The position numbers were made by a program, and so were the translations under genes. The notes beneath the pieces are model-generated. The model saw only the letters and a program-made list of their open reading frames with translations, did not search any database and had not been told where the DNA came from. This document shows positions 10,738 to 22,219 of a DNA stretch of 64,000 nt, piece after piece (position 1 is the stretch's first letter; the number at the start of each line of letters is the position of its first letter). The DNA comes from Candidatus Eiseniibacteriota bacterium (GTDB lineage Bacteria; Eisenbacteria; RBG-16-71-46; SZUA-252). The DNA is taken from assembly GCA_963724515.1 (NCBI GenBank), contig CAVRUU010000002.1, positions 2,942 to 66,941 of the forward strand, written 5' to 3'.

Positions 10738-10775
10738 GGAAAATGAAACGCCCCGCCTCTTGGAACGAGGCGGGG
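10738..10775 (-). terminator. Rho-independent terminator after the STAS gene
   Basis: On the minus strand: CCCCGCCTC-gttccaa-GAGGCGGGG (a perfect 9-bp GC stem) followed by cgTTTCATTTTCC, beginning 24 nt after the stop at 10800. Confidence 0.7.
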
Positions 10776-10799
10776 CGCGATTCGGTTCCGTTTCGCTCG

Positions 10800-11474
10800 C
10801 TAGAATCTCGTCGTGCTTCCGGAGGCCGCGCTCGACTTGGAGTAGGCTTCGCGCCGCTCGCGCGTGTCCAGCTCGAGCTTCCGGAGGATCACGTAGAGCT
10901 GCACGGGATTCATCTCGCGGCCGCCCAGCTCGGGTCGGCGCAGCTCTTTCTGGATCCGCATGAGACCGTAGTCCGGGTGCTTGCGCGCGATTTCGCGAAC
11001 GAGGTCATCGTCCGACAGGATCGTCTCGCTCCGCCGCAGCCCGTCCTCACCCGAATCCGGGTTCGGCTGGTGCGCGGATGAGGAGGGTCCGGAGGACGGC
11101 GCCGGACTGGCGGGCACGATGGGTCCGAAAGAGGCGACGGCCAGGTCGGCGTCGGTATAGGACTGCAAGATGTTCTCGAACTCGAGCAGGTCGAAGACCT
11201 CACGCACGTCGGGCGCCATGCCCGCCAGCTTCAGGTCTCCACCATGCTCGCGGATTTCCCGGATCTCGCTGATGAAGATCCCCCATCCCGCGCTGGAGAT
11301 GTACTCGACCCGCGCAAGGTCCACCACCACGTGAAAACGCTTCTCACGGAGCAACGCCTGCAGGCGCCGTTCCAGATCCGGGCTGGTGGTGGTATCCACG
11401 TACCCGGAGACGCGCAGGATCGATACACCCCGGTTCTGTGCGGCCTCTTCGACGTAGACGTCGATACCCTTCAT
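10800..11474 (-). CDS. STAS-domain anti-sigma-factor antagonist (RsbV/SpoIIAA-like) with a ~100-aa C-terminal extension
   Basis: 224 aa. The STAS core (LRVSGYVDTTTSPDLERRL...VVVDLARVEYISSAGWG) includes the phosphorylatable Ser context. A Pro/Ser linker leads to a C-terminal segment (DDLVREIARKHPDYGLMRIQKELRR...VQLYVILRKLELDTRERR) that resembles IS3-type transposase HTH modules. The start overlaps the upstream stop (ATGA). Confidence 0.9.
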   Translation of the reverse strand: MKGIDVYVEEAAQNRGVSILRVSGYVDTTTSPDLERRLQALLREKRFHVVVDLARVEYISSAGWGIFISEIREIREHGGDLKLAGMAPDVREVFDLLEFENILQSYTDADLAVASFGPIVPASPAPSSGPSSSAHQPNPDSGEDGLRRSETILSDDDLVREIARKHPDYGLMRIQKELRRPELGGREMNPVQLYVILRKLELDTRERREAYSKSSAASGSTTRF

Positions 11475-13933
11475 TCTCCCCCTCCTTGTCCTTCTGGGGC
11501 ACGGTCGGCTCGGGCGGTCGAAGACAGCGCCTGCGCCAGCCTTGCCATACGTCTATCGGTCCCGTTTTGGGCGAACTCAAGCCTTTTTTCCCGCGTGTTA
11601 AGCCCGTTCTTCTTTAGAGTTAGGTAGACCGTGGCCGGGGTCAAACCAGGCCCCGCCTTGCGGGTCGCGATGAGCAGCTCCGCGACTCGCTTCGCGCCCA
11701 GAAGAGGCTCGGCTTTCACGACCGCCAGGATCGCGGCTTCCTCCTCGAGGCTCGCCCGCGCGAGCCCGGCCCGCGGCCGGAGGCTCTTCAGCCCCTCCTC
11801 GCCTCCAACCTCGGCGACGCGGCGGCGGTAGCGGTAGTAGGTCGACGGCGCGATCTGCAGCTGCTCGCATGCTTCCCCGACCGGCATTCCCTCCTGCTCG
11901 ACGAGCCGGAAGAGCTCGCGCCGCTTCGACTCGATCCTCACCTCCGGCTGCACCTTCTCCTTGATCGCCACGAGCGTGATGTCGTCGTTCTGGAGCGCGC
12001 CGGCGGTGAATTCGTGGATTTCCCGATCGAGCGCCTCGGTGAATTCCTGGGCGGTCAGGTGGCCGTACTTCTTGATCGCCGCGAGGAGCCTGCCCTCCCC
12101 GAACTGCTCCCGCGAGGGATTCATGGCCTCGGTGATGCCGTCCGTGTAGATGACGAGCATGTCCTCCTGCTTGAGCGTGAGCTTCTCGACCGAGATGGTG
12201 CGCCGGAAGAGATCGGCGTCCGGCGCGTCGATCCCGACCGGGATTCCCTTCGGCTTCAGGAAGTAGGTCGCGTCCGATTCCCCCCGATAGAGGATCATCG
12301 GATTGTGCCCCGCGCTCGCGTAGCTCACGACGCGGTTCACCGAGTCGAGCACGACGTAGAACATCGTCACGAACATCCCCTTTTTCATGTCCTCGGTGAC
12401 GAAGGTGTTCATCCGGGCCATCACGTCGGACGCGGAGCGGTTCCCGCGCGCCTCCATCCGGAGCGCGGTCCGGATCATCGTCATGACCAGGGAGCCGGGG
12501 ACGCCCTTGCCCGACACGTCCGCGACCACGACGCCGATCGTGCGCTCGTCGACCTGGACGAAGTCGTAGTAGTCCCCTCCCACTTCCTTGGCGGCACGGT
12601 AGAGCGCGCCGATCTCGTAGCCCTCCAGCTCGGGGACATTGCGCGGAAGGAGGCTCTGCTGGATCTCCTGCGCGACCTGCATCTCCTTCTGGAGCCGTTC
12701 CTGCTCGACCAGATTCCCCTGAGCCGCCCGGAACTTGGCCGTGATCTCGTTGAACGCGCGGGCGATCTCGTCGATCTCCTCGTTACCCGACCCGCCGACG
12801 TCGGCCATCATCGTTCCCTCGCCGATCGCCCGCACGCTGTCGGAGAGGACCTGGATCGGCCGCACGAAGATCCCGATGAGGATCATCGAGAGGACGCAGC
12901 CGAGGAACAGGATGAGGAGCGCGATCCCCGCCAGCTCGGCGCGCGCCGCCCCGATCCGCGCCCCGATCGCGTGCTCGCTGATCCCGATCTGCACATATCC
13001 GAGCACGGTGGCGAGGGCCTTTCCCATCGTGCCGGCCCGCACCGGCTCGACGATCGTCCCGACGCCGTTGCTCACAAGGTAGGCCGGGGGCGCCCACTGG
13101 CCGCCGAGACCCGCGCCCGATCCGGACTTGAGCCCGCTTCGCTCGGTGGTGAAGAGCTCCTCGAACCGGTTGCTGCCCCACACGCGGCCCGCGGTGTCGA
13201 GCACCCGCGCCGAGACGTAGTCCGGATTCGCCTTGAGCGCGGCGCGAATCGACTGGTTCAGGAGTGTCTGCTCGATCGACATCGGCTCGGGCCGCGAGAG
13301 AACGTCCGCCGCCGGAATCGCGAGCCCGCGCGCGACGCTCCGCGCATGCAACAGGGTCTCCGCCCGGATGCTCTGCATCTGGCGTGCGTGGATGGCCGTG
13401 AAGGCGACCGCCACGAGGAAGGTCATCGCGCCGAACGCCTGAAGGGTGTACGTGAAGCGGAGCGAGCGCGGCCGCGTGCTGCCGCCGGCCCGGCGGCGCC
13501 GCCGGCCGAGGCGCTTCGACATCGTGAGGGCGTTGCCGTCGGCGCTCCCCCGGTAGCGCACCTCGTCCATGAGCTGATTCATGAGGAAGACGCCGAGTCC
13601 GCCGCGCTTTCGGGTCTCGACGTACATCTTGAGGTCCGGGCTCTTGACGTTCCTGAGGTCGAAGCTCTCGCCCTGGTCCCGGATCTCGATCGAGAACTCG
13701 CGCTGGTTTCCGGTCACGACGACTTCGATGAAGCCGCTCCGCCCCTTGTAACCGTGCTTCACGACGTTCGTGCAGGCTTCGTCGACCGCCAGCTTCGTGT
13801 TGGCGAGAACCTTCCCCGGGATCTGGATCTTCTCGCCGACCTCCTGGATGAAGTCGCGGATCTCGGCGAGATGCCGGTCCTCGGCCGGAACGCGGAGCTG
13901 GAAGCGGCGGGTCGGTCCCGCCTTCCGGATCAT
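11471..13933 (-). CDS. Multidomain partner-switching regulator: RsbW/SpoIIAB-like kinase, 2 TM with an extracytoplasmic loop, HAMP, PP2C (SpoIIE) phosphatase and an HTH
   Basis: 820 aa.
- N-terminal HATPase_c_2-like region: LAVDEACTNVVKHGY...GGLGVFLMNQLMDEV.
- Two hydrophobic helices.
- HAMP: RPIQVLSDSVRAIGEG...IDEIARAFNEITAKF.
- PP2C: AQEIQQSLLP...GGDYYDF...DVSGKGVPGSLVM...YTDGITEA.
- C-terminal HTH: ACEQLQIAPSTYYRYRRR...GAKRVAELL...TVYLTLKKNGL. Confidence 0.9.
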   Translation of the reverse strand: MIRKAGPTRRFQLRVPAEDRHLAEIRDFIQEVGEKIQIPGKVLANTKLAVDEACTNVVKHGYKGRSGFIEVVVTGNQREFSIEIRDQGESFDLRNVKSPDLKMYVETRKRGGLGVFLMNQLMDEVRYRGSADGNALTMSKRLGRRRRRAGGSTRPRSLRFTYTLQAFGAMTFLVAVAFTAIHARQMQSIRAETLLHARSVARGLAIPAADVLSRPEPMSIEQTLLNQSIRAALKANPDYVSARVLDTAGRVWGSNRFEELFTTERSGLKSGSGAGLGGQWAPPAYLVSNGVGTIVEPVRAGTMGKALATVLGYVQIGISEHAIGARIGAARAELAGIALLILFLGCVLSMILIGIFVRPIQVLSDSVRAIGEGTMMADVGGSGNEEIDEIARAFNEITAKFRAAQGNLVEQERLQKEMQVAQEIQQSLLPRNVPELEGYEIGALYRAAKEVGGDYYDFVQVDERTIGVVVADVSGKGVPGSLVMTMIRTALRMEARGNRSASDVMARMNTFVTEDMKKGMFVTMFYVVLDSVNRVVSYASAGHNPMILYRGESDATYFLKPKGIPVGIDAPDADLFRRTISVEKLTLKQEDMLVIYTDGITEAMNPSREQFGEGRLLAAIKKYGHLTAQEFTEALDREIHEFTAGALQNDDITLVAIKEKVQPEVRIESKRRELFRLVEQEGMPVGEACEQLQIAPSTYYRYRRRVAEVGGEEGLKSLRPRAGLARASLEEEAAILAVVKAEPLLGAKRVAELLIATRKAGPGLTPATVYLTLKKNGLNTREKRLEFAQNGTDRRMARLAQALSSTARADRAPEGQGGGE

Positions 13934-13967: not shown

Positions 13968-15911
13968 TCACCGGCGCGCCTCGGACTTCATGCGCTCACG
14001 CGCTTCGAGCACGTTCCGCCGCGCGCTCTCGTTCAGGGGATCGAGGACGAGGATCTGCTCCCAGTTCCGGAGCGCCTCGCGGTAGTCCCCCGCGCTGAAG
14101 GCTTCCATGCCCTTGATGTAGAGCTGCTTGATCCGCGCGTTCAGCTCGGGCTTGGGAGTGGAGAGCCTTCTCCCGATCCGGTCGCGCCAGTCCTTGGCTT
14201 CCGGGCTTCCGGGATCGAGCGCCAACGCGCGCTGCGCGGCGGCGCTCGCGTCGGCGTATCTACCCTCCGCGAACGCGCGCGCGACCTCGTTCAGGGCGGT
14301 GAGGGCCGCGAGCTTCTTGCCCAGGTTCTGCGCCTCGGCCGCCGTCTTCCCCAGGGTGGCCTCCATCTCGGCCCAGCGCGCCTGCGCCTTCGGGTCGTCG
14401 GGGCTGAGCCTCAGGGCGAGCGCGACCTGCCCGGCCGCGTCGATCACCCGGCTCTTCGACTGGAGCGAGTCCGCGCGGGCCAGCGCCCGGGCCGACGCTC
14501 GGTCGCGGGCCGCCGCCACGTCGCGCGCGAGCACCGCGAGCGTGTCGCGCGAGACGCCGCCTTGAGCCCCGGCGCTCTGGATCCCCCGCATGAGACCCGC
14601 GGCCTCCTCGGCGTCGCCACGGAGGAGCGCCTTCCGGGCCATGTCGGCCAGAGCGACGGCGAGCCTCTTGCCGCTCTCCACCTCGATCGCGGCCTTGGCG
14701 CTCCGCTCGATCTCGGCGCGCGCGCGCCCGGAGCGGGAGACATAGTCGCGCTGTCCGGGATCGGCGCGCTCGAGCACTTGCCACAGGATGAGCGCTGTCT
14801 CCCAGTCTTCGGATCTCTCGGCGGCCTCGGCCTTCGACCGATCGCGCGCGATGTCGCCCGCGTGCCGGGCGCGAAGCGAGTCCTCGGCGGCCCGGCGAAG
14901 CTCCTCGATCCGCTGCGCTTCGTAGCGGCTGATCGGAACGCCCCACGCGAGGCGGAACGCGAACTGCTGCGTGGCCTCGACTTTTCCACTCTGGTAGGCG
15001 TAGTCGAATCCGTAGCGGCGGAACTTGAGCCCCAGGCCGAATACCGGACCTCCGTCGGAGAATCCCGCGCGGATAGCGCCCAGCCCCGCGCGCGAGAACT
15101 CGGCCCCCACGCGCGGCTTCATGCCCTCCTTGCCGCGCGTGGCGAGGTCGAGAACGAGGCTTCCCACGGAGGACGCGTTCAGTCGCCACTCGGGGCTCCC
15201 CAGTCCGATCCGATAGGAGCGGTCGAGCGCGGGCGAGGTCCCGCCCAGATCGAGAGATCCCGCCACGACGTTCTGCGCCGACACGCCGATCCGGGCGCCG
15301 CGGAGCGCCGGCGGGCGGCAGAGCAGCCCCAGATCGAGCGCCGGGGCCGATGCGGAAAGGTCGCCGAGCGTCTGACCCAGGATCTTGAACGTGGCGCCGG
15401 CCCAGATCGGGCCGCGCACGCGGCGCGCGACGCTCGCGGCGGCCGCGGTCTCGCGGTAGTTCATCGAGCCCAGAGGACGATTCTGGGAGTCGTAACCCTC
15501 GATCCCTCCGGTTCCGATCCGCGCGAACCCGAGGCCGATCCCGCCGAGTCCCGGCACCGGATAGGAGACCGCGGCCAGGTCCCAGGTGGTCTCGAACTGG
15601 AGCATGCCGTGGTGCACGAGGAACGAGCGCTCGTCCTGGGTGGCAAGCCCCGCGGGGTTCATGTAGATCGCGAGCGGATCGAGGGCCATGCCCGTGAACC
15701 CGCTCACGGCCCCGGTGCTCGGCCAGCCGGCCGGCGTGGACATGAGGTTCGACGTGCCCGCGGTCTGCGCGGACGCGCGCGCGTGCGTGCTCAGGAACGC
15801 GGCGATCAGGAGCGAGGCTGCGAGGAGCGCCCGGACGAGGCGCTTCACCGGGACGCGCCGCAAGAAGCGGCGGCTCACGACGCACCGTCTGCGCAAACGG
15901 TTTCGCCTCAT
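13968..15911 (-). CDS. PorV/PorQ-like outer-membrane beta-barrel fused to a C-terminal coiled-coil/TPR region
   Basis: The track ORF is trimmed to the ATG at 15911, which overlaps the adhesin stop (ATGA). Signal peptide ...LLIAAFLSTHARASAQ. The barrel half has the PorV-family look (GFTGMALDPLAIYMNPAGLA, alternating strands, ...FAFRLAWG). The ~290-aa C-terminal half is Ala/Arg-rich helices with clear TPRs (FSAGDYREALRNWEQILVLDPLNESARRN). Confidence 0.8.
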   Translation of the reverse strand: MRRNRLRRRCVVSRRFLRRVPVKRLVRALLAASLLIAAFLSTHARASAQTAGTSNLMSTPAGWPSTGAVSGFTGMALDPLAIYMNPAGLATQDERSFLVHHGMLQFETTWDLAAVSYPVPGLGGIGLGFARIGTGGIEGYDSQNRPLGSMNYRETAAAASVARRVRGPIWAGATFKILGQTLGDLSASAPALDLGLLCRPPALRGARIGVSAQNVVAGSLDLGGTSPALDRSYRIGLGSPEWRLNASSVGSLVLDLATRGKEGMKPRVGAEFSRAGLGAIRAGFSDGGPVFGLGLKFRRYGFDYAYQSGKVEATQQFAFRLAWGVPISRYEAQRIEELRRAAEDSLRARHAGDIARDRSKAEAAERSEDWETALILWQVLERADPGQRDYVSRSGRARAEIERSAKAAIEVESGKRLAVALADMARKALLRGDAEEAAGLMRGIQSAGAQGGVSRDTLAVLARDVAAARDRASARALARADSLQSKSRVIDAAGQVALALRLSPDDPKAQARWAEMEATLGKTAAEAQNLGKKLAALTALNEVARAFAEGRYADASAAAQRALALDPGSPEAKDWRDRIGRRLSTPKPELNARIKQLYIKGMEAFSAGDYREALRNWEQILVLDPLNESARRNVLEARERMKSEARR

Positions 15912-18900
15912 CGCAGCACTCCCACCTTGATGCGCTCGCTCACGCCGGGTCCGTCGATTCGCGCGACGTAGACACCCGGCCGGACCAGTTCCCCGTTCCC
16001 GTTTCGCCCGTCCCAGGGAACCTCGTTCAGGCCGCTCGTCCCGCCGCGCCCTCCTGGGGCGAGCGACATCTCGCGCACGAGATCCCCGAGCAGCGTGTAG
16101 ATGGACACTTTCACGGCGGCGTCCTGACCCAGCACGTAGGAGAGCAAGCAGGCCTCGTTCCCCGCGTGGAACGGGTTCGGGTAGCCGTGGGGCCGCCCGA
16201 AAAACGTGATGTCGCGCGACGTCAGAACGCTGAAGGGAAGCCCGCCGCCGCCCACGACGGGGACGCTGCCTCCGGTGACAACATCGACGGCGAAGACGTC
16301 GGTCGCCTGCGCCAGCGCGAACGCGACGCGCTGCGCCGCCGTCCCCGCCCGGAACGTCGCCTCGACGAAGAGCGATTCCGGAGCGTTCCCCATGGCGAGC
16401 GGGGGGCTGACCGTGAGGACGACCGGATTGGGGGCGCCCGGAGCCGGCGCGCTCTGCGCGAGAAGGGTGCCCGCCGCGTCGCGTAGGGCGATCGAGGCGA
16501 TCGAAGAGGCGGGCGCCGTTCCGGCCGTGCCGTCCGAGAGGACGGTGACGGCGATCGACTGGAGAGAATCGCCGGTGGAGCTGCCGGCCACGGCCAGCGG
16601 CATCAGCTCGATCCCCCAGACCCGCACCGGCGCTCCCCCCGCCGCCACCTGCAACGGCGGGGACGTATCGATCGCGCGCACCTGGATCGCGGCGAGGGCT
16701 TGGAGCACGATGAACTCGCTGTCCGAGGAACCGACCGAGGCGCTTCCCGGAAGGCCCCACTCGGTTCCCTGGAGCGCGAGGTCCACGCGGTACGGCTGGC
16801 TCGCCATCGACGCGGGAATCGTCACGCCCGGGAAGCGGAGCGTGGCCGTGGCGCCCAGCCCCAGCGTGAAGGCGCCGCCCGTGCCGAGGCCGGTCATGAC
16901 GTCGACACCGTCGGTGAGGGTGAGCCTGGATGCGGACGGATCGAGCACGAACGGCGATCCGCCTCCGTTCCGCACGTCGAGCGTGACGTCGGTCGTCTGA
17001 CCGGGACGTGCCTGGCTCGGCGCGGTGGAGCGCGCCACGTACTGGAGCGCGGCCGGCTGCATCGCGTGGAGCGTGTCCGCGGTCAGGCTCTGCGCGCGCA
17101 CGACACCGTCCTCGAGCCCGAAGACATCGAGCGTGGCCGCGGCGTCTCCCGGCGAGGCCGGCGAGCCGAGCGCCCCGCCGGAGAAGCTCAGGACGAGCGA
17201 CTGGCCCGCGCCCACCGTGAGGGCCGCTCCCAGGGTCCGCGTGACGGCGACCGGCGGGCCGAGCTCGAGCGCCGTCGCCGGATCGAGGGCGAAGGACACA
17301 TCGCCCAGATTCTGAAGCGTTATCGAGAGGGGACGCGATTGCCCCGCGCTCACCGTTCCCGGGCTGAGCGAGCCGGCTGTCGCGGCGAGGAGCGCGGGAT
17401 CGAGGACGTCGACGCTGTCGGGCGCGAACGGGATCGTGTCGGTGAACGCCTGCCCTGCTTCGATTCCGTCGACGTACAGAAGCGCCGGGTATCGTCCCTT
17501 GGAGACGCTCCCCGGCACCGCGAGCGAATCGAACGCGAGGGTCGCCTGGTCGGACGCCGCGACCGCGGTGTTGGCCGAAAGCGCCGTGACGAGCGTGGTC
17601 CCGCCGAGATCGATGACGAGCCTCGTCGTTCCCCGCTGGAGCGTCGCGCTCGCGGCGCCCGTGTTCGCGACGCGCACCGTCGGGGCCGATGTCCTCCCGC
17701 GGAGGAATCGCTGCGGCGTGCCCGTGCCAGCGACCGCGACGATCGCCGCGCCCGAGACGACGCGGAAGCCGAGCGGCGTCACGCTGGACGCGACGACGGG
17801 GTTCCCACCGAACGTGACCGTCGCCTGAAGCGTCGCGTCGACGGTCGTCCCCGACGGGATCCCGCTCGACGGGACCTGCGCGGGGAACGTGAAGCGCGTG
17901 GTTGCCCCGGCGGGGATCGCGGTCCCGAGCGGCGGTGTCGGCGCCCCGGTGATGAAAGCGCCCGTCGAATACCCCACGCTCGCGCCCGAGAGATTCCCCG
18001 CGGTGCCGGAGATGTTCGAGACGTCGAACACGAGGGAGACCGTCTGGCCGAGCGAAACCGGATCGGGAGAGGCGCTCACGGCCGTCACGCCGATCCCGCC
18101 GACGCTCACCTGGGCTCCGGCGAGGCTCGGATAGAAATCGAACGAAGCGCCGGTCGCGTCGGTCCCGAAGGCGCGAAAGCTCGGTGCGTAGGAGCCTGGG
18201 GCGAGCGCGGCCGGAACCGTTGCCGCGGCGAACGCCAGGGTCGCGGTGGCCCCGGCTCCGATGGTGGCGGTCGAGGCGAGGGTCGCGGAGAACGCCGTCG
18301 CGCCGGCGCCGAATGAGAAGATCGAGCCCGCACCGACCTGGATCGTGCCCGTTCCCGTGTTTCGCGCCTGGAGCGAGAAGGCGGCGCTTCCACCAGGGAC
18401 GACCGCTCCCGGCGCAAGAGAACCCGCCACGTACGCGAGCGACGGAGGCGGCACGTACGTGAATGCGTGCGATCCGGCGCCACTGCCCGCGCGCGAGACG
18501 GCCAAGAGCGTGTCGAGACCCGCCGTGGAAGGCGCGATGAGAACGACCGAGGCTTTGCTGTCGGCTCCGGTCGCGAGATCGAGCCCCGGATAGGCGGCGC
18601 TCGCGTCGGAGGCGATGAGGGTCCCGGCTTGCGCGCTCACGCCGATGAGGATCCCGGCCCCGACGAGATTCCCGAACGTGTCCCTTACGGGACCGAGGGT
18701 GATCGTCGAGGCGCTTCGTCCATCCGCGGTCAGGCTGTCGCGCGTCGCGGAGGTCGCGATCGCGCCCCCGGGAGCCGCGGGGGTCACCGTCGCGTTCCCG
18801 CCCGCGCCGCTGCCTCCGCCCGCGCGGTCCGCGCCGATCGCCACCGACTCGACGAGCGTGTCGCGGCCCATCGTCACGAACGCTCCCGCCGAAAGGGCGC

Positions 18901-21900
18901 CCGAGACCGGCGTCCACGTGACGGCGCCCGAGGGGCGCATCGTCACCAATGCGGTGTCAGCCGTCACGAGGTTCCCGAACGCATCGACGGCCTGCACGCT
19001 GACGCTCTCCGGAACGCCCGCGGTCCACGCGAGCGAGGCGGCCGTCACCCGGAGCGCGGCCGTCGGCCCCGGGTACGTTGCCGCGCGGATTCCGACCGCG
19101 CTCAGCGATCCCCCGCTGACGAAGACCGAATCCGCCGCGGGCGCCGCGCTGGGGGCGCGGTAACGCACCGCGAGCCGGCCCGAGGAGTTCGTGATCCCAC
19201 TCTGCGATCCGGGCCCGCCCGACGTGCCGCCGATCGACTCGAGCGATCCCACGGCACTCGGCCCGCCCAGGTAGAACGTGATCGCGTGACCCTGGATCGG
19301 GTTCCCCTGCGGATCGAGCACCGTGACCGTCACGTTTCTCCCCTGCGTGGGCGTCAGGGAGAGCGAGTCGGGAGCGAGCGTCAGGCTCGCGGCGCCGGCC
19401 GGATTCACCGCGACCGGCCCGTAGGTGACCGTGGGGCGCGCGCCGTCGCTCACCTGGATCGTGAGGGGGCTCGCCTGGGTTGGGGTTACCGGGATCGGGG
19501 CGGTGCCTCCGCTCAACGCCACGGAGCCGGGCACGGTCGCGGCGCCGGACGTCACGGTGGGCGTGAGCAGCTCGCCGCTCTCGCCCGGAAGAGGGTTTCC
19601 GAACGAGTCGAACGCGTCGACGGTGAGCGTGACACCCGTGCCCGCCGTGAGGGGCCCCGCGGGACCTGAGATCGTGTAGTGGTCGATGGCGCCCGGCTGG
19701 TAGAGGATCGCGGGCTCGACCAAGAGCGGCACGCCGCTCGCGATCACGTGCACGACGCCGGTGTCGGCGACGGTCGCCGTCGCGCGGAAGTCGAGGCTGC
19801 CGCCGGCGTCCGTCGCGGATCCGAGCGCCGTCACGGTCGCCGAAACGCCGGCCACCGTGACCGCGATCGATGCAGCCGGAATGCCGGGCAGCGGATGATC
19901 CTGGCTGTCGCGGAGCGTGACCTGGACGATGCTGCCCGTGGCGCCGACCGGGGCCGGCGACCCCGCGCTGACACCGGAGCGCCCCGCGCTCACGCTCCCC
20001 GGGACGAGGCGGACGCTCACGGAGCCGGCCGAGGTGGTGTCGCGCACCGCCCGCGCGGTGACCACCGCCGTGGCCAGCACGTCGCCGCCGAAGAGCGTGC
20101 ACGTGATGGCTCCCCCCGACGCGGAGACCTGAACCCCGGGGGTCGATGGGTCGGCGTCGGCGGTCACGATCGAGCCGGCCGAGGCGGCGACCGTGTACTT
20201 CTCGCCGTTTTCGACCTGGTTTCCGTTCGCGTCGTGAAGGCCGCTCGCGCCGATCGTGAGCGTCGCGACGCTGTCGGCGGCGAGCGAATCGGCCGCGGCC
20301 CCGAGCGCGATCGATGCAGCCGGAATGCCGGCGAGGAGTCGGACCGCGGCCGTGGCGCTCGCCGGGCCGCCGCCTCCCACGCGCTCCGCCGTCACCGTGG
20401 CCGTTCCCGGGCCCGCCACGACGCCTGCGCGCACGCTGCCGCCGACGGCCCCCGTGGAATCCGCGAGGAGCTGCGCGCCAGGCGCGCCCGGATCCTGATC
20501 GGTGACCGGCGAGACGAGTGTCCCCGCCAGCGTGAACCGCTCGCCGGCCGCCACGGCGTTCCCGTATGCGTCGACCGCCGTCCCCGAGACGAGCACCGAA
20601 TCCACGGAGTTTGCGATCACGGTGTCGGGCGATGCGAACAGCACCATCAGGGCCGGCACGTTCGGGACCGTGTACACCGGCGCCCCTGCCGTGCCCAGGA
20701 AGGGCGACACGCCGTTCGCGTCGATCGCGCGGATGCGACCCTCCGACGTCGTGGTCCGGGTGTCGGTGAACTTGAAGCGCGCGGAATCGGCGCCCGCCGG
20801 GACCGTGATCTCGAAGATCGCGCTCGTGCCCGCGACGCTCCGGAACGTGCCGTTCGAACGGTCGGTCCACAAGGTCAGGGTCTCCGGAGCAAGGGCCGGC
20901 GCCGGGTTCCCGAAGGCGTCGAAGACCCGCACGGTGACCGTGTCCGGCACTCCCGCCGTGAGACGGAGCGTGTCGGGCGCGAGCACCATGTGATCGGGAC
21001 CGGCCGGAGAGACATCGAGGCGATGACGCCCGGACGTAAATCCCATGGCTGAGTCGCTTACGGCGAGCCAGAAGGCGCCCGCGCGGCGCGCCGTCAACGA
21101 CCCCGCGTACGTGCCGCCTGCGAGCGCGGCCAGGTCGCTGACGAGCTCCGGGTCGGCGGCCGCGGCGCCCACCGAGTCCGCGAACGCCACGAACCGCAAC
21201 GCCGCCACGGAGCCCGGCCCGTCCGTGATCGTGTTCCCGTCCGCGTCGCGCGAGCGCGCGGTGACCGCGAACGGAGCGCCCGCGGTCGCGGAGCCGGCGG
21301 CCGTCATCGCGAGCCCGGCGTACGCGCCGTGGAGGACCGTGATGACCCCCGTCGAGTCCGTCCACACGCCCGCGCTGTCCGCGTAGGCCTTGCCGGTGCC
21401 CGGAACGTCGAGCCGGAGGGCGGTGGCCGAGCCGTTCGCCGGCACGGGAGCGCCGATCCCACCCGACAGCGTCCAATCACAGCGAATCAGGAGGCCCGGG
21501 TTTCCGTAGGAGTCGTAGCCACGGAGGAAGAGCTGAGTCGTGTCCTGGTCGGTCGTGCGCGTGAGCGCGTCGACCGGCGCGCCCGAGCCGTCCACGAGAT
21601 CAACGGAGACCACGGCCCCTGCTTTGACGGCCAGCTGGACCGATGTGGAAACTTCCGCCGGCGACCCGGTGAATTGTGGGTCGCTCAGGACCTGGAACAC
21701 GACGGTGTCGGGCGCGATCGTCTGCACTCGCGCGGAAGCGGACCCGCCCCCCGCGCCGTAGACGATTCCGAACGAGTCCCCGCTCAGGAACCGCGTCGCG
21801 CTCGAGAAGTGAGGCGCCCCGCCGAGGTAGACGCGAACGGTCTGACCCGAGACCGAAATCGAATCGACCCTGACGTCGGTGGACGCGACGTACCCCGCCG

Positions 21901-22219
21901 CGGTGGAATCCGTGGTCTGCGGCGGACTCCATCCGGTCGGAATCACGGCCTCGATGAATCCGCCGGTCACGGCATCGAAGTCCTCTCCGGCGGTGTAGGT
22001 GATCGTCCACGTGCCGGGCGCGCCGGCCACCACGGTGTCGGGAGGCGTGATGAAAGCGGTCCCCGATCCCGCGCCCGCGAGAGCGGACGTTGCGAGCAGG
22101 CAGCAGGCGCACGCGACCCCGAGCGCGACGAGGATCGAGCGCCACGTCGCGCGCGCGCGCGAGCGCCCGCGCTTCGGGAACGCACGCGGCTTTCGGTTCC
22201 GGAGTGGTTGCTGCGGCAT
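15908..22219 (-). CDS. Giant surface adhesin-like protein (Big/invasin-type Ig repeats, CARDB-like repeats, FlgD-Ig/T9SS-like CTD)
   Basis: 2103 aa with a signal peptide (...LVALGVACACCLLATSALAGA).
- About 9 Ig-like modules with the recurring motif (V/A)xDA(F/Y)GNP/GNxV, e.g. VRVFDAFGNPAP, TAVDAYGNAVAAG, VDAFDSFGNPLPG, VLDPQGNPIQG, VQAVDAFGNLV.
- About 7 CARDB-like modules in the C-terminal half.
- CTD: GYPNPFHAGNEACLLSYVL...VKVSIYTLLGDLVREM...WDGRNGNGELVRPGVYVARI. Confidence 0.92.
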   Translation of the reverse strand: MPQQPLRNRKPRAFPKRGRSRARATWRSILVALGVACACCLLATSALAGAGSGTAFITPPDTVVAGAPGTWTITYTAGEDFDAVTGGFIEAVIPTGWSPPQTTDSTAAGYVASTDVRVDSISVSGQTVRVYLGGAPHFSSATRFLSGDSFGIVYGAGGGSASARVQTIAPDTVVFQVLSDPQFTGSPAEVSTSVQLAVKAGAVVSVDLVDGSGAPVDALTRTTDQDTTQLFLRGYDSYGNPGLLIRCDWTLSGGIGAPVPANGSATALRLDVPGTGKAYADSAGVWTDSTGVITVLHGAYAGLAMTAAGSATAGAPFAVTARSRDADGNTITDGPGSVAALRFVAFADSVGAAAADPELVSDLAALAGGTYAGSLTARRAGAFWLAVSDSAMGFTSGRHRLDVSPAGPDHMVLAPDTLRLTAGVPDTVTVRVFDAFGNPAPALAPETLTLWTDRSNGTFRSVAGTSAIFEITVPAGADSARFKFTDTRTTTSEGRIRAIDANGVSPFLGTAGAPVYTVPNVPALMVLFASPDTVIANSVDSVLVSGTAVDAYGNAVAAGERFTLAGTLVSPVTDQDPGAPGAQLLADSTGAVGGSVRAGVVAGPGTATVTAERVGGGGPASATAAVRLLAGIPAASIALGAAADSLAADSVATLTIGASGLHDANGNQVENGEKYTVAASAGSIVTADADPSTPGVQVSASGGAITCTLFGGDVLATAVVTARAVRDTTSAGSVSVRLVPGSVSAGRSGVSAGSPAPVGATGSIVQVTLRDSQDHPLPGIPAASIAVTVAGVSATVTALGSATDAGGSLDFRATATVADTGVVHVIASGVPLLVEPAILYQPGAIDHYTISGPAGPLTAGTGVTLTVDAFDSFGNPLPGESGELLTPTVTSGAATVPGSVALSGGTAPIPVTPTQASPLTIQVSDGARPTVTYGPVAVNPAGAASLTLAPDSLSLTPTQGRNVTVTVLDPQGNPIQGHAITFYLGGPSAVGSLESIGGTSGGPGSQSGITNSSGRLAVRYRAPSAAPAADSVFVSGGSLSAVGIRAATYPGPTAALRVTAASLAWTAGVPESVSVQAVDAFGNLVTADTALVTMRPSGAVTWTPVSGALSAGAFVTMGRDTLVESVAIGADRAGGGSGAGGNATVTPAAPGGAIATSATRDSLTADGRSASTITLGPVRDTFGNLVGAGILIGVSAQAGTLIASDASAAYPGLDLATGADSKASVVLIAPSTAGLDTLLAVSRAGSGAGSHAFTYVPPPSLAYVAGSLAPGAVVPGGSAAFSLQARNTGTGTIQVGAGSIFSFGAGATAFSATLASTATIGAGATATLAFAAATVPAALAPGSYAPSFRAFGTDATGASFDFYPSLAGAQVSVGGIGVTAVSASPDPVSLGQTVSLVFDVSNISGTAGNLSGASVGYSTGAFITGAPTPPLGTAIPAGATTRFTFPAQVPSSGIPSGTTVDATLQATVTFGGNPVVASSVTPLGFRVVSGAAIVAVAGTGTPQRFLRGRTSAPTVRVANTGAASATLQRGTTRLVIDLGGTTLVTALSANTAVAASDQATLAFDSLAVPGSVSKGRYPALLYVDGIEAGQAFTDTIPFAPDSVDVLDPALLAATAGSLSPGTVSAGQSRPLSITLQNLGDVSFALDPATALELGPPVAVTRTLGAALTVGAGQSLVLSFSGGALGSPASPGDAAATLDVFGLEDGVVRAQSLTADTLHAMQPAALQYVARSTAPSQARPGQTTDVTLDVRNGGGSPFVLDPSASRLTLTDGVDVMTGLGTGGAFTLGLGATATLRFPGVTIPASMASQPYRVDLALQGTEWGLPGSASVGSSDSEFIVLQALAAIQVRAIDTSPPLQVAAGGAPVRVWGIELMPLAVAGSSTGDSLQSIAVTVLSDGTAGTAPASSIASIALRDAAGTLLAQSAPAPGAPNPVVLTVSPPLAMGNAPESLFVEATFRAGTAAQRVAFALAQATDVFAVDVVTGGSVPVVGGGGLPFSVLTSRDITFFGRPHGYPNPFHAGNEACLLSYVLGQDAAVKVSIYTLLGDLVREMSLAPGGRGGTSGLNEVPWDGRNGNGELVRPGVYVARIDGPGVSERIKVGVLR

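Follow-up and report, generated by a model that had tools for sequence, protein, structure and literature searches.

Knowledge of type IX secretion has been built almost wholly on two models from the Bacteroidota. Within these models, to our knowledge, PorV is a free shuttle and only the PorP/SprF barrels are cargo-specific. In the attachment complex of Porphyromonas gingivalis, the barrels of the pairs PorQ-PorZ and PorV-PorU permanently hold a protein that retains its C-terminal domain (CTD). The present analysis concerns a gene for a protein of 647 amino acids (aa) on the minus strand (positions 13968-15911) of a stretch of 64,000 nucleotides (nt) from a Candidatus Eiseniibacteriota bacterium (contig CAVRUU010000002.1), which as a whole is referred to as the window. 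The product combines a predicted beta-barrel of the PorV/PorQ family with a long helical tail resembling tetratricopeptide repeats (TPR) and is called the tailed barrel in the following. The functional unit to which it belongs comprises four genes and not two, namely those of a giant CTD protein, of the tailed barrel, of a membrane sensor, and of a STAS-domain protein.

The nearest known system is PorV (LptO), the carrier of type A cargo in the secretion system of type IX (T9SS), known from Flavobacterium johnsoniae (6H3I, 8GL6 chain F) and P. gingivalis (PMC5562754, PMC10994853). The 14-strand FadL-type barrel and an N-terminal motif of the ...YWNPAGL type are shared; SprA and PorU are likewise present in the genome studied here, and a protein ending in a CTD is likewise associated with the barrel. 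There are, however, several differences: The tailed barrel is shorter (about 270 aa), scores below the family cut-off, and bears an added helical TPR-like tail of 320 aa, and its gene adjoins those of one cargo and a sensor, not that of PorU, whereas a separate canonical PorV is situated beside PorU. As in PorQ-PorZ and PorV-PorU, there is one barrel per partner, and the CTD of the partner is nearest to that of PorU, which fits a retained CTD. In contrast to these pairs, the partner here is a 2103-aa protein with immunoglobulin (Ig)-like repeats and neither a sortase nor PorZ, and PorQ and PorV possess, unlike the tailed barrel, neither a periplasmic arm nor a neighbouring sensor.

Concerning the PorP/SprF barrels, these are the cognate shuttles of type B cargo (PMC12618676), and the PorP barrel forms a complex with PorE, which is a TPR protein, and with PG1035, a CTD protein of type B, in P. 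gingivalis (PMC9143113). Equally to these systems, the genes of the cargo and of its dedicated barrel are adjacent in the window, the cargo would be anchored, and a three-layer layout is found, which is there distributed over separate chains. The barrel belongs, however, to the PorV/PorQ family, the CTD is type A-like, the TPR part is fused to the barrel, and a sensor is added; furthermore, the tailed barrel lacks an OmpA_C-like peptidoglycan-binding domain, unlike the PorE system.

As to signalling, the TonB-dependent transducer FecA, acting with FecR and FecI, touches an inner-membrane regulator by its periplasmic extension and thereby reports a surface event. It differs from the tailed barrel in its unrelated 22-strand fold, in the N-terminal position of the extension, in the uptake of a ligand as the reported event, and in its anti-sigma/sigma output. 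In the PorA-PorY-PorX-SigP signalling of P. gingivalis, the CTD of PorA is the ligand of the sensor kinase PorY (PMC12152298). Similarly, the periplasmic part of an inner-membrane sensor would, as proposed here, read an element of T9SS cargo and tie secretion or display to regulation; whereas in PorA-PorY the histidine kinase binds a CTD as its ligand, without participation of a tailed barrel, here the barrel tail predicts the sensor, and the output consists of a partner-switching PP2C/RsbW-like kinase with a STAS protein. Such an output is reminiscent of SypE-SypA of Vibrio fischeri, in which an RsbW-like kinase and a PP2C domain within one protein act on a STAS protein (PMC10120452). The opposing kinase and phosphatase domains in one protein and the STAS partner are common to both; unlike SypE, the sensor of the window is membrane-bound, has HAMP and a periplasmic Cache-like domain where SypE has a receiver domain, and is encoded within a T9SS cargo-barrel operon. 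Neither in PorV and the pairs PorV-PorU and PorQ-PorZ, nor in the PorP/SprF systems or PorA-PorY, does the barrel bear a fused tail or a sensor connected to it. No published description of a module of tailed barrel, sensor, and STAS protein was found in the literature searched on PorV with partner-switching, on T9SS in Eisenbacteria, and on T9SS with STAS or PP2C, such that the module is apparently undescribed in print.

The tailed barrel and the gene preceding it show the following features:

15908-22219, minus strand: giant surface protein of 2103 aa with a signal peptide, Ig-like repeats, and a C-terminal CTD of T9SS type (residues about 2010-2103)
15768-15911, minus strand: the barrel protein's start codon and its signal peptide (aa 1-48; hydrophobic stretch 22-45; likely cleavage between ASA and Q)
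14940-15749, minus strand: N-terminal plug motif (ALDPLAIYMNPAGLA) and predicted 14-strand beta-barrel of the PorV/PorQ family (aa 55-324; profiles, AlphaFold2, Foldseek)
13971-14933, minus strand: predicted all-helical, TPR-like C-terminal tail (aa 327-647; Pfam, AlphaFold2, family profile)
13971-14150, minus strand: last TPR pair, the most conserved part of the tail (aa 588-647)

Judged from profiles and a structural model, the N-terminal half is a divergent 14-strand FadL-type barrel of the PorV/PorQ family, in line with what an earlier reading of the bare sequence (the original prediction) had proposed. The hhalign comparison of the family profile with the canonical PorV of the same genome yields a probability of 99.8 % (E 8e-28) over 278 columns, i.e., the whole barrel, with barrel residues 43-323 aligned onto residues 22-323 of canonical PorV, and the family profile matches the F. 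johnsoniae PorV sequence of the PDB (6h3i_F) at E 1.2e-19. The AlphaFold2 model, calculated for the full barrel-tail protein on an alignment of 53 sequences, has a mean pLDDT (predicted local distance difference test) of 81.5 and contains 14 strands within residues 95-323, mostly at pLDDT 80-92, which are preceded by short plug-like helices. The top Foldseek matches in the PDB are the PorV chains 8gl6_F (E 9e-9) and 6h3i_F (E 6e-7), with TM-scores of 0.56-0.59 by target length, followed by FadL and TodX. In terms of column identity, conservation within the tailed-barrel family is highest in the N-terminal plug. The search with family models that the original prediction had proposed gave a mixed outcome: NCBIfam PorV_fam (NF033709) matches residues 73-215 to model positions 21-180 of 326 with E 2.5e-14 and 53.6 bits, which misses the curated cut-off of 90 bits (45.8 bits in a six-frame search of the genome); the PorQ model (E 1.2e-8) and the PorV2 model also match, and no PorP/SprF model is among the eight NCBIfam families that match the protein at E up to 1.

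The C-terminal half, for which the original prediction had expected helices with TPR units, contains 12 helices between residues 327 and 646 in the AlphaFold2 model, arranged in helix pairs throughout, and Pfam recognizes TPR_11 at residues 547-572 and TPR_2 and TPR_1 at 595-627. The gathering cut-off is barely met by TPR_2 (27.5 vs 27 bits) and slightly missed by TPR_1 (27.3 vs 27.8) and TPR_11 (23.3 vs 26.8). Consensus TPR proteins are matched by the family profile along the entire tail, as is the TPR part of BamD; many tail helices of this subfamily are longer than classical TPR helices, and a distant-profile search for homologues returned almost solely generic TPR proteins. Mean column identity amounts to 0.45 in the last TPR pair and to 0.31-0.35 in the middle of the tail, and the residues Y598, G601, W617, D624, P625, and N627 are invariant in the family alignment. 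The C-terminus of the barrel would face the periplasm, as it does in other outer-membrane barrels, and the tail would accordingly be located there.

Altogether 133 homologues were found at E ≤ 0.001, nearly all of them 620-700 aa long and aligned end to end, and those with a name are for the most part labelled Candidatus Eisenbacteria. An exhaustive HMMER scan returned 770 proteins at E ≤ 1e-10, and both barrel and tail are present in 119 of the 149 best representatives (at 50 % identity). As far as can be judged from sequence, the tailed barrel thus represents a family of at least 119 clusters at 50 % identity from several phyla; the tail, which the original prediction had treated as a departure from canonical PorV, is not a rarity. 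In the sample of the phylum, all 32 genomes of the window's own family contain an orthologue, remoter copies exist in other families, and several genomes hold two or more copies. Among species-representative genomes, full-length tailed copies occur in contigs labelled Krumholzibacteriia, Ignavibacteria, Zixibacteria, GN15, Elusimicrobia/Endomicrobiales, and Spirochaetia (taxon labels of metagenome-assembled genomes are here and below the submitters' own). A tree of 117 barrels, of which 53 are tailed, unites 47 of these in one clade (SH-aLRT 89) and scatters the remainder, with at least four changes of the tail state forced by well-supported branches.

Concerning the gene upstream, the ATG of the barrel gene (15909-15911) overlaps the TGA (15908-15910) of the 2103-aa open reading frame in an ATGA junction, as had been predicted; a GGAG is situated 7 nt 5' of the ATG, and the junction is identical in all 11 same-genus loci that were fetched. 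The stoichiometric co-production originally read from this overlap is not borne out, as an ATGA overlap cannot show stoichiometry. The giant protein itself had been called a CTD protein, and this assignment holds: Its C-terminus appears by sequence to be a divergent type A CTD, which matches other CTDs of the genome (BLAST E 1e-13), TIGR04183 (E 8e-4, 19.3 bits, under the curated cut-off of 23), and the CTD region of PorU (E 4e-4). Pfam Big_1 and FlgD_ig match the giant protein below their cut-offs (FlgD_ig with 21.9 vs 27 bits). An identity as a PorU-like sortase, suggested by the neighbourhood of porU and porV in Bacteroidota, was considered and rejected, as only the last 80 aa match the CTD of the PorU model and the real PorU and PorV are encoded on contig C6.

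The CTDs of the cassettes exhibit 40-53 % identity between loci whose barrels share about 25 %, and they cluster together (support 96/90 for three of them, 81/80 with a fourth), although orthologous cargo would cluster anyway. Within the genome, the nearest CTD is that of PorU (35 % identity, E 1.6e-13). PorU retains its CTD, which is held by PorV in P. gingivalis, and the similarity to its CTD therefore hints by analogy that the giant protein may be permanently anchored and not shuttled. Directly upstream of the barrel, a CTD gene is found at 47 of the 52 loci with a tail and at 44 of the 60 without; pairing of one cargo with one barrel is thus the general habit of this barrel family outside Bacteroidia.

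Pairs of a CTD gene and a tail-less barrel of the PorV family are common (L096-L147) in contigs labelled Zixibacteria, Elusimicrobia, Cloacimonadota, Caldithrix, FCPU426, WOR-3, and Aerophobetes; they are also present in contigs labelled Nitrospira, Clostridia, and Bacillota, labels that may be binning errors. In four tail-less barrel proteins of about 440 aa from Eisenbacteria loci, the barrel is directly followed by a stretch that weakly matches a CTD (E 1e-5 to 1e-8). A barrel bearing its own CTD-like domain is odd; the examples, each following a CTD protein of 1000-1270 aa, are:

L051, 8621-9919: tail-less barrel with its own CTD-like match
L058, 8850-10226: tail-less barrel with its own CTD-like match
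L063, 8914-10236: tail-less barrel with its own CTD-like match
L064, 4986-6323: tail-less barrel with its own CTD-like match

Downstream of the tailed barrel, the window continues with two further genes of the cassette:

11471-13933, minus strand: inner-membrane sensor of 820 aa, 34 nt after the barrel gene (Pfam, hydropathy)
12944-13381, minus strand: periplasmic sCache-like domain of the sensor (aa about 185-330, ~145 aa)
10800-11474, minus strand: STAS-domain protein with a C-terminal extension of ~100 aa, in ATGA overlap with the sensor gene

The sensor consists, in this order, of an RsbW-like HATPase_c_2 domain (15-140), a transmembrane (TM) segment (about 163-183), the sCache-like periplasmic domain, a second TM segment, HAMP, a PP2C/SpoIIE domain (463-658), and a helix-turn-helix (HTH) tail. 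For the periplasmic domain, sCache_3_2 (PF17203) gives a weak match over the full length of the model (E 0.006, 17.1 bits vs a cut-off of 28.4), and relatives that align with this domain end to end exceed the cut-off. The AlphaFold2 model of the domain (pLDDT 78) has its best fold match in the extracellular Cache domain of WalK, followed by KinD and DctB, and CitA is among the matches. The STAS domain is shown by Pfam in orthologous loci, where the position of the gene is kept, and the copy of the window aligns to these. No sigma factor gene adjoins the sensor and STAS genes (window 10800-13933).

The order of the four genes is kept in several phyla and amid unrelated flanks, at barrel identities that range from 79 % to about 25 %. 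It recurs at 57 % and at about 25-30 % barrel identity with different flanking genes, it is found in 15 of 16 further loci of the phylum (the sole exception having no tail), and it is also present in loci from other phyla. For a comparison of tailed and tail-less barrels, 112 loci from many uncultured phyla were scored with purpose-built hidden Markov models of the barrel, the tail, the CTD, the RsbW-like part, the periplasmic-plus-HAMP part, PP2C, and STAS, and the results were corrected by hand. A membrane sensor belongs to the cassette of 50 of the 52 tailed barrels, and it follows immediately downstream in 48 of these 52 (46 by script, plus L045 and L047 by hand, which the script had missed because of overlapping open frames); L127 possesses a histidine kinase 1.7 kb downstream of the tailed barrel, and L109 a HAMP cyclase upstream of the cargo gene. 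Not one of the 47 tail-less barrels with enough flank has a sensor. All eight sensors tested by Pfam contain HAMP before the output domain, and sCache_3_2 is detected in five of them. The output itself is HATPase_c_2 plus SpoIIE in loci of Eisenbacteria, Ignavibacteria, and Zixibacteria, HisKA plus HATPase_c in three loci of Endomicrobiales or Elusimicrobia, and an adenylate/guanylate cyclase (Guanylate_cyc) in one Spirochaetia-labelled locus. The sensor therefore goes with the tail and not with the barrel alone, and its periplasmic input and its position persist while the cytoplasmic output differs by lineage. As it is the tail and not the barrel that tracks with the next gene, the sensor is the tail's likeliest partner.

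The genome to which the window belongs (1.96 Mb, 69 % complete) encodes SprA (503 bits), PorU (492 bits), and a canonical PorV (213 bits), the PorU gene being situated directly upstream of the latter (C6:168137-169108), and more than 30 frames end in a CTD. Five barrels of the PorV family are present, among which the 647-aa protein is the most divergent; the other four score 95-215 bits with PorV_fam. Two tail-less barrels each come after a CTD-type protein of 914-1112 aa, and the genes after the three tail-less paralogues encode an LD-carboxypeptidase, a GWxTD protein, and an M6-like peptidase. A protein of 912 aa with a different long tail (C3:776413-779151) is the second tailed barrel of the genome and belongs to a module (C3:771230-782004) in which a 1393-aa CTD protein, the tailed barrel, and a CHASE2-TM-Ser/Thr protein kinase succeed one another. 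It comprises a PorV-like barrel, a middle part that by eye resembles a transglutaminase with Cys, His, and Asp, and TPRs, and its barrel groups in the tree with a 1066-aa protein labelled Gemmatimonadetes (L137). Both tailed paralogues of the genome thus precede sensors, and none of the three tail-less ones does. The exchange of output domains and this separate CHASE2 module constitute the stronger arguments for a functional tie between tail and sensor.

Within C6:164761-173409, which holds the canonical porU-porV pair, a further gene lies 5 nt after porV; it encodes a protein of 1123 aa that contains an M6-like HExxH motif together with FG-GAP repeats and a CTD, and may represent a further attachment-complex or cargo gene.

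Within the window, the four-gene cassette is followed by one further element:

10748-10778, minus strand: terminator-like hairpin of 12 pairs, 10 of them G-C, and adjoining T-rich tail; distance from the stop codon of the STAS gene, 22 nt

The hairpin is likely the end of the four-gene operon, for which its position is suggestive, although terminator-like sites are no more numerous in the region than in shuffled sequence. The HTH tail of the sensor is homeodomain-like and of transposase type (HTH_23/28/29/32), and it is also present in orthologues. Sensor frames of the Krumholzibacteria type are considerably larger (~1440-1500 aa) and contain HATPase_c_2, HAMP, SpoIIE, and three STAS stretches, with small STAS genes downstream:

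L069, 10788-15278: long sensor frame of Krumholzibacteria type
L074, 2003-6316: long sensor frame of Krumholzibacteria type
L076, 10801-15138: long sensor frame of Krumholzibacteria type
L085, 2083-6513: long sensor frame of Krumholzibacteria type

The explanation that we favour is that of a dedicated cargo anchor whose periplasmic arm signals to the sensor; taken as a whole, it is considered slightly more probable than its negation. Its two parts differ in strength: That the protein is a PorV-type barrel with a periplasmic arm, dedicated to one cargo, is held with good confidence, while a coupling of the arm to the sensor in the way described here has about an even chance, or marginally better. 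The giant protein would cross the outer membrane via the SprA translocon, and by analogy with PorV-PorU, PorQ-PorZ, and the type B cargo of PorP/SprF, its CTD would be handed to the tailed barrel, which would keep it on the surface. The tail, hanging from the periplasmic C-terminus of the barrel, would touch the Cache-like domain of the sensor, most likely via the two final TPRs, which are conserved. When the surface protein is loaded, lost, or strained, HAMP signalling may then change and the balance at the STAS protein between the PP2C phosphatase and the RsbW-like kinase may shift, which would in turn alter gene expression or another cytoplasmic output; that the signal runs outside-in is an assumption based on how Cache-HAMP sensors usually work. 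The original prediction had proposed a private shuttle or anchor with a periplasmic interaction arm. This agrees with the PorV-type barrel, the conserved pairing with a CTD protein, and the T9SS set of the genome, but it was incomplete, as the sensor and STAS part of the unit had been missed.

Several points weigh against the favoured explanation. The barrel, at about 270 aa, is smaller than solved PorV, and because of this size and of the score below the PorV_fam cut-off, binding of a CTD by it is an extrapolation. Models from Bacteroidota, used with no positive control, found neither GldK nor GldM, which mark the ring and motor of the T9SS, in the 69 %-complete genome; this may reflect a detection limit or a reduced system. 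No recognised sensor is present at two of the 52 tailed loci (L125 and L137). Furthermore, since 47 of 53 tailed barrels fall into one clade, the raw contrast of 50 to 0 amounts to few independent events: Only two well-supported independent contrasts of tail and sensor exist (six on all branches), in which the sensor follows the tail, and a sign test on the two supported ones is not significant (p = 0.5). The association is thus ancient and stable and not proven many times over. Cache domains usually bind small molecules and not proteins, the contact of tail and sensor is one that we infer, and the adjacency of the genes could reflect co-regulation only.

If the arm did not signal, it might serve the shuttle or anchor alone, by docking to periplasmic T9SS parts or peptidoglycan or by handling the long passenger before export, as a built-in counterpart of SprE/PorW or PorE, with sensor and STAS protein regulating the operon on an unrelated signal. 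In the extended translocon, the TPR lipoprotein SprE sits beside PorV and contacts, with SkpA, its periplasmic base (PMC10994853), which keeps this possibility alive; PorE is likewise a TPR protein bound to the PorP barrel (PMC9143113), the TPR of BamD is matched by the family profile, and cargo and barrel are paired even where tails are missing (44 of 60 loci). However, such a role would leave unexplained why sensors are confined to tailed barrels and why they are retained when output domains are exchanged, and cargo size alone demands no arm, since tail-less barrels also serve cargo of 1000-3000 aa. It is therefore deemed unlikely, though of some weight.

According to another explanation, the sensor would monitor secretion load, its Cache-like domain binding the cargo CTD or unexported cargo, and the tail would just hold the sensor at the export site or compete for the CTD. 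The activation of PorY by the PorA CTD from the periplasm (PMC12152298) provides a precedent, and the cassette CTD is distinct and unusually conserved (53 % vs 25 % for barrels). CTD proteins paired with tail-less barrels, however, go without sensors, and the tail still predicts the sensor, which renders this explanation improbable.

Still less probable, and only marginally credible, is a FadL-like channel for the uptake of a hydrophobic small molecule that is sensed by the Cache domain, with an incidental link to the CTD. FadL and TodX are indeed the next-best fold matches, and Cache domains, among them those of the fold matches DctB, KinD, and CitA, typically bind small ligands; but the sequence profile is specifically that of PorV/PorQ (99.8 % to the genome's own PorV), the barrel gene is directly preceded by a CTD gene at 47 of the 52 tailed loci, where the stop codon of the one often overlaps the start codon of the other, and the 320-aa arm would have no role.

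An artefact, in which a frameshift that went unnoticed fuses two genes or the frame is open by chance, might be suspected in DNA of ~72 % G+C with many spurious long frames, where the frame of the barrel gene remains open further upstream for 1649 codons and where support for the gene must therefore come from conservation and not from the open frame, but it is ruled out by the single frame kept in more than 130 full-length homologues and in the 119 of 149 distant representatives that contain both halves, and by a pLDDT of 85-92 for residues 300-350, which span the junction of barrel and tail; a frameshift at this point was one of the caveats raised by the original prediction.

Returning to the anchor with a signalling arm, a more general proposal can be made with greater reserve, and we put it somewhat below an even chance: Tailed PorV-like barrels might form the outer-membrane half of an undescribed trans-envelope signalling route, in which the anchor barrel reports presence, loss, or mechanical load of a giant surface protein via its TPR arm to the extracytoplasmic domain of a sensor (sCache-like here, CHASE2 in the second module).

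Outside the Bacteroidota models, barrels of the PorV family are routinely encoded one-to-one with their cargo, and a large subfamily has acquired what would be a periplasmic arm, linked by genome context to membrane sensors with interchangeable outputs. The idea that arm and sensor are in contact is testable with recombinant fragments, without culturing the organism. If it is true, bacteria would have a new means of surveying an adhesin that they display, and Cache and CHASE2 input domains would gain a partner that is a protein; these domains are usually presumed to bind small molecules, and their signals are often unknown. Several uncultured phyla would then possess a sense of surface contact or surface integrity built onto type IX secretion.

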